Shown here: one piece after another, positions 18,734-19,732 of the stretch
Layout of the letters: every line of letters starts with the position of its first letter
Numbering within the stretch: position 1 is the stretch's first letter
Virus record (IMG/VR): IMGVR_UViG_2724679172_000006
DNA: 58,458 nt
Source: a virus
Taxonomy: Duplodnaviria; Heunggongvirae; Uroviricota; Caudoviricetes
Direction: 5' to 3' (one strand)
The notes under the pieces: generated by a model
Database searches by the model: none
What the model was told of the DNA's origin: nothing
Seen by the model: only the letters and a program-made list of their open reading frames with translations
Translations under genes and position numbers: made by a program

Positions 18734-19732
18734 TTATCCGTTACCGCGCGACGGTTTCTGCGTGATAAACGTCTCAAGCATCTTTTCCGCAATTGCCGAC
18801 CAGGTGTGACACTGGACCTTTTCAGCATTTTTCACGCGATCAACGCGAGCAATAACCTCATCCCAATCAATCCGCGACTTGATAACCATATGGTTCACCA
18901 ACTCCAGGCGATCCGGCGGAAGGCAATCGGGCGGAGTTAATATCAACGCTCCACACATTGCCGCCTCAAGAACAGTTAATCCAAGGCTTTCGGGATGCGT
19001 AACGATAAAAATGTCACTCTTACGCAATTCAGCTGCAAATTCGGTTGCTGGTACCGGAGTCCGTCTGTATGGGGTTACCGAAATATTCCCCGGCTCAATG
19101 GTAACCAATCCGTCATCGGTCAGCGTTTTGGCCTCATACGGAACGGTCAGGCGCTGAAGGTTCATAAGGATACTTAAGGAGTGATCAAACCCACTAACAT
19201 CAAATGCCGCGTGGTCTACAAAAATACGCAGAACATCGTCTGTTTTGGTTTCCAGATGGAACAGCTCCTGATTCGCTGCCCATCCAACATGTTTGTTAAA
19301 ACGATTATGACGCTCTAACCTGCCGGGATTATCCAGGTACCGCCAGGTATCATCGCGGACAGTAAAAGTAATATCGACTGGTGCCGAATCCAGCATAGAA
19401 CCGTCATATACCTGGGCTACCCATCCAGAGAATCGGCGACACAGTTGCATGCCTATTTCCCTGGGTACCGTAGTAAAATACCTCAATCCTGGTGCCAAAA
19501 TGGCCTTCGCAGAACATGCGGTCGCAGCAGTCAACACAGCTTCAACATAATCCTCCGGGCTTTCGACGCCAGGGGAATATGGACGATGGTATTGCAATGT
19601 TACCCCTGCCTCACTAAAGGCGCAGGCCAGGTTATAAGCCCACATTTCCGTATATGTTTTCACATCACTGATGGCTGCAAATTTTCGCCCAATGATCAGG
19701 ATGTTCATCGGCTTTTCCTCATTCCATTGCAT
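18734..19732 (-). CDS. GT-B-fold glycosyltransferase-like protein
   Basis: C-terminal SDIFIVTHPESLGLTVLEAAMCGALILTP resembles the GT4 E-x7-E region; directly downstream of the DnaB-like gene. Confidence 0.45.
   Translation of the reverse strand: MQWNEEKPMNILIIGRKFAAISDVKTYTEMWAYNLACAFSEAGVTLQYHRPYSPGVESPEDYVEAVLTAATACSAKAILAPGLRYFTTVPREIGMQLCRRFSGWVAQVYDGSMLDSAPVDITFTVRDDTWRYLDNPGRLERHNRFNKHVGWAANQELFHLETKTDDVLRIFVDHAAFDVSGFDHSLSILMNLQRLTVPYEAKTLTDDGLVTIEPGNISVTPYRRTPVPATEFAAELRKSDIFIVTHPESLGLTVLEAAMCGALILTPPDCLPPDRLELVNHMVIKSRIDWDEVIARVDRVKNAEKVQCHTWSAIAEKMLETFITQKPSRGNG

Follow-up and report, generated by a model that had tools for sequence, protein, structure and literature searches.

The dbn gene of bacteriophage P1: a divergent GT4-like glycosyltransferase candidate and its conserved sugar-enzyme neighbours

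Identity of the gene and prior annotation

We analysed a 58,458-nucleotide stretch of DNA from a virus of the class Caudoviricetes (IMG/VR record IMGVR_UViG_2724679172_000006; this whole stretch is referred to below as the window), with a focus on the open reading frame (ORF) at positions 18734-19732, which an original prediction made from the sequence had described as a glycosyltransferase-like gene placed directly after a DnaB-type helicase gene. Positions 18000-22000 of the window are 99.2% identical, in reverse orientation, to bacteriophage P1 (AF234172, NC_005856), and the protein encoded by the ORF is 97.6% identical to P1 Dbn. The gene and two motifs within it are as follows:

18734-19732, minus strand: dbn, an ORF with an ATG start encoding 332 amino acids, a predicted divergent GT-B (GT4-like) glycosyltransferase.
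18965-18991, minus strand: codons E248 to E256 (ESLGLTVLE) of the E-x7-E motif, recognised by conservation in 79 sequences and by alignment to the GT4 motif.
19211-19216, minus strand: codons of D173-H174, a pair invariant in the 79 sequences that ends the first strand of the C-terminal domain (residues 168-173 in the predicted model).

The name dbn stands for "downstream of ban", and the GenBank entry for the P1 protein (AAQ14048.1) has read "Dbn, function unknown, possible glycosyltransferase" since 2004. The gene is called glt in the record of phage P7, and in RefSeq the copy from RCS47 is listed as a "glycosyltransferase family 4 protein". PHROG 2518, a family without an assigned function, matches Dbn across its full length. 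Consequently, the observation behind the original prediction is real, yet it restates the annotation of 2004 and was already known, and to call a sugar transferase at this position unexpected is an overstatement in view of that annotation. The new element in the present analysis is the genetic neighbourhood of dbn, namely that it belongs to a group of four genes which is contiguous in most other phages.

Predicted fold and conserved motifs of Dbn

The AlphaFold2 model of Dbn (predicted local distance difference test score, pLDDT, 86.5; predicted template modelling score, pTM, 0.84) comprises two Rossmann-like domains, the arrangement of a GT-B fold and that of GT4 enzymes, and the reading of the protein as a GT-B enzyme was accordingly not refuted. 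A Foldseek search with this model returned GT4 enzymes as its top matches (E 4.5e-9), the top matches of both fold searches performed were all transferases, and the best structural matches act on sugars, lipids and proteins and are not DNA enzymes. The E-x7-E motif lies in the C-terminal domain, as it does in GT4 enzymes: in a set of 79 family sequences, with identities to P1 Dbn of 23-57% only, E256 never changes and E248 is retained in at least 90%, and the segment aligns with E281-E289 of Escherichia coli WaaG as well as with the GT4 enzymes MshA and PimA from the PDB. Given this conservation among divergent members, and the alignment with WaaG and with the motif of GT4 structures, the E-x7-E motif is no chance match. 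The original prediction was right that two glutamates separated by exactly seven residues are present, but the peptide it quoted (SDIFIVTHPESLGLTVLEAAMCGALIL) spans residues 239-265, in the C-terminal third of the protein and not at its very end. On these grounds we are highly confident that Dbn is a GT-B, GT4-like enzyme.

Taken by itself, the sequence evidence that Dbn is a glycosyltransferase is thin. The Pfam family Glycos_transf_1 (PF00534) matches Dbn over residues 229-315 only and with 23.8 bits, below the gathering threshold of 26.4. Precomputed Pfam hits are absent for most family members, an NCBIfam search with Dbn gave no useful match, and PDB sequence searches with the single protein and with family profiles yielded only marginal matches, those to GT4 enzymes being limited to the E-x7-E segment. 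A match to KtrA in the PDB sequence search was judged spurious. Alignment by hhalign found no correspondence between Dbn and WaaG or WaaB outside that segment. The family is small as well as divergent by sequence comparison: it numbers 22 clusters (90% identity) in a set of 5.8 billion proteins and 360 representatives (50% identity) in one of 1.8 billion. At 324-332 amino acids, Dbn is shorter than the retaining GT-B enzymes of family GT4 such as BshA, PimA, GlgM, WaaG and MshA (approximately 360-400), from which it also differs in its sub-threshold Glycos_transf_1 score, in aligning over the E-x7-E segment only, and in the small size of its family.

The residues conserved across the 79 sequences include several that are unusual for GT4. 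D173, H174, H246, E256 and G261 are invariant, and D110, D183 and E248 nearly so. In the predicted structure D183 stands at the start of the helix that follows the D173-H174 strand. We take GT4 enzymes to carry a GR..K motif, with phosphate-binding Arg and Lys, in the region where Dbn has D173-H174 and D183, a putative correspondence that comes from reading the sequence against predicted secondary structure, hhalign aligning the E-x7-E segment alone. The presence of an invariant Asp-His pair and a near-invariant Asp where Arg and Lys for the donor diphosphate are expected suggests that a metal ion may assist donor binding in Dbn, with Asp-His replacing Arg/Lys. In summary, Dbn is predicted to be a soluble glycosyltransferase with a GT-B fold, a divergent enzyme of GT4 type.

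Gene neighbourhood of dbn homologues

Loci of the dbn family outside the P1 lineage were collected from metagenomes, IMG/VR, GenBank phages and genomes, and their ORFs were searched with P1 proteins; a scan of genome contigs returned three loci, and a degenerate DNA pattern nine short ones. As iterative PmgP and PmgQ profiles merged with one another through fusion proteins, the partner genes reported here were called from single-sequence searches and from a hand-cleaned PmgO/P set. The P1 genes that recur beside dbn homologues are the following:

12137-12799, minus strand: pmgO, a putative ulosonic-acid (CMP-sugar) transferase, WaaZ/MptE-like, matching PHROG 4603 ("alpha-2,3-sialyltransferase") with E 4e-74.
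11613-12239, minus strand: pmgP, a paralogue of pmgO, its product 27% identical to PmgO, with a GSGPS motif in both.
10241-10942, minus strand: pmgQ, a GT8-like GT-A glycosyltransferase gene and the most constant neighbour of dbn homologues.
10700-10708, minus strand: codons D79-L80-D81 of the DXD motif of PmgQ, all three residues invariant in 48 homologues.

At 15 loci a pmgQ homologue lies immediately 3' of the dbn homologue on the same strand, usually overlapping it, and at two others (L174 and L179 in our numbering of loci) it is at most 1.5 kb away. Homologues of pmgO or pmgP flank the dbn-pmgQ pair at eight loci, among them L008 and L009, where a pmgP homologue is adjacent to that of dbn. 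In a Buttiauxella locus (L005), a Serratia prophage remnant (L007) and a P1-like element (L165), homologues of pmgQ and pmgP are found within 3-6 kb, and in the first two of these a pmgO homologue is situated approximately 8 kb from the dbn homologue. Only at two loci (L105 and L106) was no homologue of pmgO, pmgP or pmgQ detected within 8 kb. At L099 a single 421-amino-acid protein (8978-10243), encoded directly after the dbn homologue, fuses a PmgQ-like with a PmgO-like domain; fusions of approximately 470 amino acids that include a PmgQ-like domain were also seen at L104 and L175. The group is present in a cultured phage outside the P1 lineage, the 111-kb E. coli myovirus EP_H11 (OP688485; L180), in which PmgO-like, Dbn-like (49% identity) and PmgQ-like proteins are encoded together at 6900-9589 and are all annotated as "hypothetical". 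The Stenotrophomonas jumbo phages CM1 and RAS14 each gave a distant and partial match.

The adjacency of ban and dbn is restricted to the P1 lineage. P1 itself carries a split version of the four-gene module, in which dbn is the last gene of the ban operon and the pmgO-pmgP-(ppp)-pmgQ series lies some 6-8 kb away, at 10.2-12.8 kb of the window. The link that the original prediction drew between the glycosyltransferase-like gene and a cluster at 8-13 kb can therefore be kept for three of the genes there, since pmgO, pmgP and pmgQ are the usual neighbours of dbn homologues elsewhere. This recurrent gene context makes it likely, in our estimation with good confidence, that Dbn works together with PmgQ, PmgO and PmgP.

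The partner genes in P1

PmgQ has a GT8-like fold of the GT-A class and a DXD motif. For the paralogous pair, the PHROG 4603 match is strong for PmgO and weak for PmgP, the Pfam MptE-like matches of both (E 6e-5 and 3e-4) fall below the cut-off of 34.6 bits, and NCBIfam WaaZ matches PmgO/PmgP with E 0.1 only. A profile built from a hand-cleaned set of 20 PmgO/P-like proteins nevertheless aligned with WaaZ of E. coli K-12, the transferase that adds the third 3-deoxy-D-manno-octulosonic acid (Kdo III) to the core of lipopolysaccharide (LPS), at 42 bits and over nearly its full length (residues 15-258), and the PmgO/P homologues at L172 and L177 have clear Pfam MptE-like matches. Because E. coli K-12 makes cytidine monophosphate (CMP)-Kdo, Kdo is a plausible sugar for PmgO and PmgP. 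A search of Dbn, PmgO, PmgP and PmgQ with PADLOC returned no match, and we therefore find no link to known defence systems.

Several further features of this region were recorded. A stretch of 103 nt (12137-12239, minus strand) is common to the ORFs of pmgO and pmgP, and PmgO homologues elsewhere are approximately 180-200 amino acids long, such that the C-terminal tail of P1 PmgO may be an extension. The ppp gene (10939-11631, minus strand), which encodes a lambda-like Ser/Thr phosphatase, lies between pmgP and pmgQ in P1 and is absent from the module at every non-P1 locus examined. The product of pap (8098-8604, minus strand) matches Pfam HAD_PNKP (E 8e-12), which is the phosphatase domain of polynucleotide kinase-phosphatase, and a PHROG family named "polynucleotide kinase"; that of pmgM (12963-13541, minus strand) has a weak match to VRR-NUC and Holliday-junction-resolvase-like proteins; Pap and PmgM resemble nucleic-acid repair enzymes more than "morphogenetic" proteins.

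The ban operon and the start of dbn

Upstream and downstream of dbn the window contains the following features:

19732-21102, minus strand: ban, the DnaB-type replicative helicase gene directly upstream of dbn, annotated as ban in P1 (Pfam DnaB_C, E 5e-108; DnaB N-terminal domain, E 2.7e-35).
21383-21458, 23086-23161 and 23164-23239, minus strand: three transfer RNA (tRNA) genes upstream of dbn.
18734-19708, minus strand: alternative reading of dbn from M9 (MNILIIG...), 324 amino acids, probably the conserved form, proposed from the starts of distant homologues and P7-type relatives.
18688-18712, minus strand: a hairpin followed by a U-run 3' of dbn, which probably serves both dbn and the convergent gene 5 as a terminator (predicted fold energy -16.5 kcal/mol; z -3.5 relative to shuffled sequences).

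This arrangement bears out the original prediction as far as the operon is concerned. The helicase gene is where it was placed, the 332-amino-acid ORF follows it with overlapping start and stop, the TAA of ban and the ATG of dbn sharing one base (...gattatTAATGcaatgg...), the three tRNA genes lie on the same strand, and co-transcription with the helicase agrees with the published P1 map, in which the operon runs from the C1-controlled promoter Pban and contains three tRNA genes, tciABC, ban and dbn. The tRNA gene at 21383-21458 is called tRNA-Met (anticodon CAT) by ARAGORN and is recorded in P1 as tRNA-Ile2, which is read after lysidine modification. A simple terminator scan missed the hairpin at 18688-18712, which was seen by folding.

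The overlap itself is particular to P1 proper, because every distant homologue starts at the equivalent of M9 (MKILIIG...; window position 19708), and the P7-type relatives of P1 (L080 and L082) start dbn at the M9 equivalent behind an AAGGAG of their own, with a spacer of approximately 300 bp between ban and dbn. In the window, a GAGGA is found 7 nt upstream of the M9 start. The conserved Dbn protein thus probably begins at 19708, and the real translation start in P1 may be elsewhere than at the overlapping ATG. At the position of tciA, both P7-type relatives encode a protein only 30% identical to the TciA of the window. These features of L080 and L082 were recorded at 7702-8001 and 5267-5701.

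Possible acceptors of the module

If the four sugar-adding enzymes (Dbn, PmgQ, PmgO and PmgP) act as one phage module, they could build a short glycan from activated sugars of the host on an acceptor made by the phage, most probably head or other virion proteins. Dbn and PmgQ would draw on uridine diphosphate (UDP)-hexoses, and PmgO and PmgP on a CMP-ulosonic acid such as CMP-Kdo; as both P1 operons are annotated as repressed by C1, the enzymes are made after induction. The identity of the gene, the folds and motifs, the neighbourhoods, the annotated regulation and the dispensability in the laboratory rest on direct evidence; what the enzymes catalyse, with which donors, in which order and on which acceptor is inferred, and our best guess, held tentatively, is that its target is virion proteins that become glycosylated in the lytic cycle. 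The fuller proposition, that P1 and many phages of Proteobacteria share a four-enzyme module which adds a short glycan, possibly with Kdo, to virion proteins, and in which Dbn is a metal-assisted GT-B variant with Asp-His in place of Arg/Lys, we regard as doubtful.

The position of the module in other phages is what points to the virion. In five lambda-like phages or prophages (L099, L101, L174 from Alsobacter, L178 and L179) the module comes immediately behind the major capsid gene and ahead of the genes for head-tail joining and the tail; in two of them (L174 and L178) it is beside genes for LamG-domain proteins, and it is often beside a gene for an FkbM-type methyltransferase or a PIG-L deacetylase. 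Mycobacteriophages offer a parallel, their capsid and tail-tube subunits being reported to bear glycans (Freeman et al. 2023, as cited in PMC12619734). They resemble the present case in having several phage-encoded glycosyltransferases and in the dispensability of the genes for laboratory growth; in the five phages named above the glycosyltransferase genes, sometimes with one for a methyltransferase, are located among head genes. They differ in that the hosts of Dbn-module phages are Proteobacteria, that glycans on the virions of these phages are predicted from gene position, and that the P1 genes lie outside the head cluster. There is also a precedent for a protein acceptor: Maf enzymes attach CMP-activated nonulosonic acids directly to Ser or Thr of a structural protein, flagellin. 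PmgO and PmgP give weak, sub-threshold Pfam MptE-like (DUF115) matches and, at approximately 200 amino acids, would correspond to the core domain only.

The P1 record places C1 operators at both operons and a late promoter upstream of pmgL. C1 control of both implies that the enzymes belong to the lytic cycle rather than to the lysogenic state, and so speaks against lysogenic conversion. All four genes of the module are dispensable for plaque formation in the laboratory, dbn, pmgO, pmgP and pmgQ having been scored as non-essential by CRISPR interference (CRISPRi), and 24 P1 knockouts in genes of unknown function showed no defect in plating or anti-restriction.

A number of observations weigh against a virion acceptor or against the enzymology proposed for it. 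We found no report of a glycosylated P1 virion protein, and a paper on the P1 virion proteome makes no mention of glycosylation; none of the four module genes of P1 is in the head-gene cluster; large aquatic phages carry the module near recA and helicase genes and not near structural genes; and a cellular relative in a capsule locus (L177) indicates that the family can work on polysaccharide. The combination of GT4, GT8 and WaaZ-like proteins mirrors the LPS-core enzymes of the host, and an envelope target fits it equally well. For Dbn itself, the sub-threshold PF00534 score counts on the same side, and, with D173-H174 and D183 in the putative positions of the GT4 Arg and Lys, its donor chemistry cannot simply be taken over from GT4. 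The capsid and decoration proteins of module-bearing phages lack obvious Ser/Thr-rich tails, which is uninformative as to the acceptor.

The most substantial alternative is that the module remodels a glycan of the host envelope, either the LPS core or a capsule-like polysaccharide, during lytic growth. The LPS core is the receptor of P1, and masking it could prevent progeny from being lost to debris or to infected cells. The fold types present correspond to the host toolkit for the LPS core, in which WaaG and WaaB are GT4 enzymes, WaaO and WaaJ are GT8 enzymes and WaaZ adds Kdo III, so that the same three enzyme types occur together in the module (the WaaZ profile match cited above, the GT8-like fold of PmgQ and the GT4-like fold of Dbn), yet the similarity is remote, at 10-15% identity in structural alignments, and the phage genes differ in being C1-repressed and conserved across hosts with different LPS. 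At L177 (10001-13702, a bacterial contig), three tandem Dbn paralogues of 328 amino acids are followed by an MptE-like gene, beside genes for a GT1-type glycosyltransferase, an ATP-binding cassette (ABC) transporter and KpsC/KpsS-like capsule proteins, and in large phages the module is accompanied by genes of a kind typical of polysaccharide synthesis, for a putative sugar nucleotidyltransferase/cupin protein (mannose-6-phosphate isomerase-type), for a pyruvyltransferase and for methyltransferases. However, repression by C1 in lysogens makes classical lysogenic conversion unlikely, the module is conserved across Enterobacteria, Alphaproteobacteria and aquatic phages despite their different envelope glycans, its position between capsid and head-tail genes in five phages would be odd for an envelope function, and Pfam searches matched no membrane or transport domain in any of the four proteins. 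We consider an envelope target unlikely on balance.

Two further explanations concern Dbn more narrowly. A role of Dbn, by itself or together with its partners, in glycosylating nucleic acid (phage DNA as a protection against restriction, or RNA or tRNA) would suit its place beside helicase and tRNA genes and the proximity of the gene to replication or recombination genes in P1 and in large phages. However, the adjacency with ban is confined to the P1 lineage and approximately 300 bp may intervene even there, and the closest structural relatives of Dbn are not DNA enzymes, which sets it apart from the alpha- and beta-glucosyltransferases of T4. P1 DNA is, moreover, routinely cut by ordinary restriction enzymes. 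No hydroxymethyl-base gene, and no gene of a 5-hydroxymethylcytosine pathway, is annotated in the parts of the P1 record examined, which fall short of the whole genome; this, together with the unaltered anti-restriction activity of the 24 knockouts, weighs against a DNA-protecting role, and the hint of DNA modification in the original prediction is left without support. We hold this explanation to be highly improbable. The other is that Dbn has a GT-B fold but is no Leloir glycosyltransferase. It might then act on sugar nucleotides as an epimerase or hydrolase, be a phosphotransferase resembling TagF, or assist PmgQ without catalysing a reaction itself. The weak Pfam score, the alignment with WaaG and WaaB over the E-x7-E segment only, and the presence of invariant D173-H174 and H246 and near-invariant D183, which are unusual for GT4, would all be compatible with such a role; yet the family strictly retains the E-x7-E motif that is characteristic of GT4 transferases, the leading matches of both fold searches are without exception transferases, and several polar residues are strongly conserved, which would not be expected of an inactive protein, so that this, too, appears improbable.

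Conclusions

P1 is a standard laboratory phage, yet a sugar-adding module seems to be made up of four of its genes, three of which still carry the label "putative morphogenetic function". P1 deletion mutants already exist, and the module is consequently open to direct testing. Should its target be the LPS receptor, the module would represent a novel means by which a phage controls the receptor that it uses. Should virion glycosylation be its function, a phenomenon so far reported for mycobacteriophages would extend to many environmental phages and to a coliphage that is amenable to genetics. P1 would then provide the first such system among the classical coliphages, with consequences for particle stability and for how the immune system recognises therapeutic phages.
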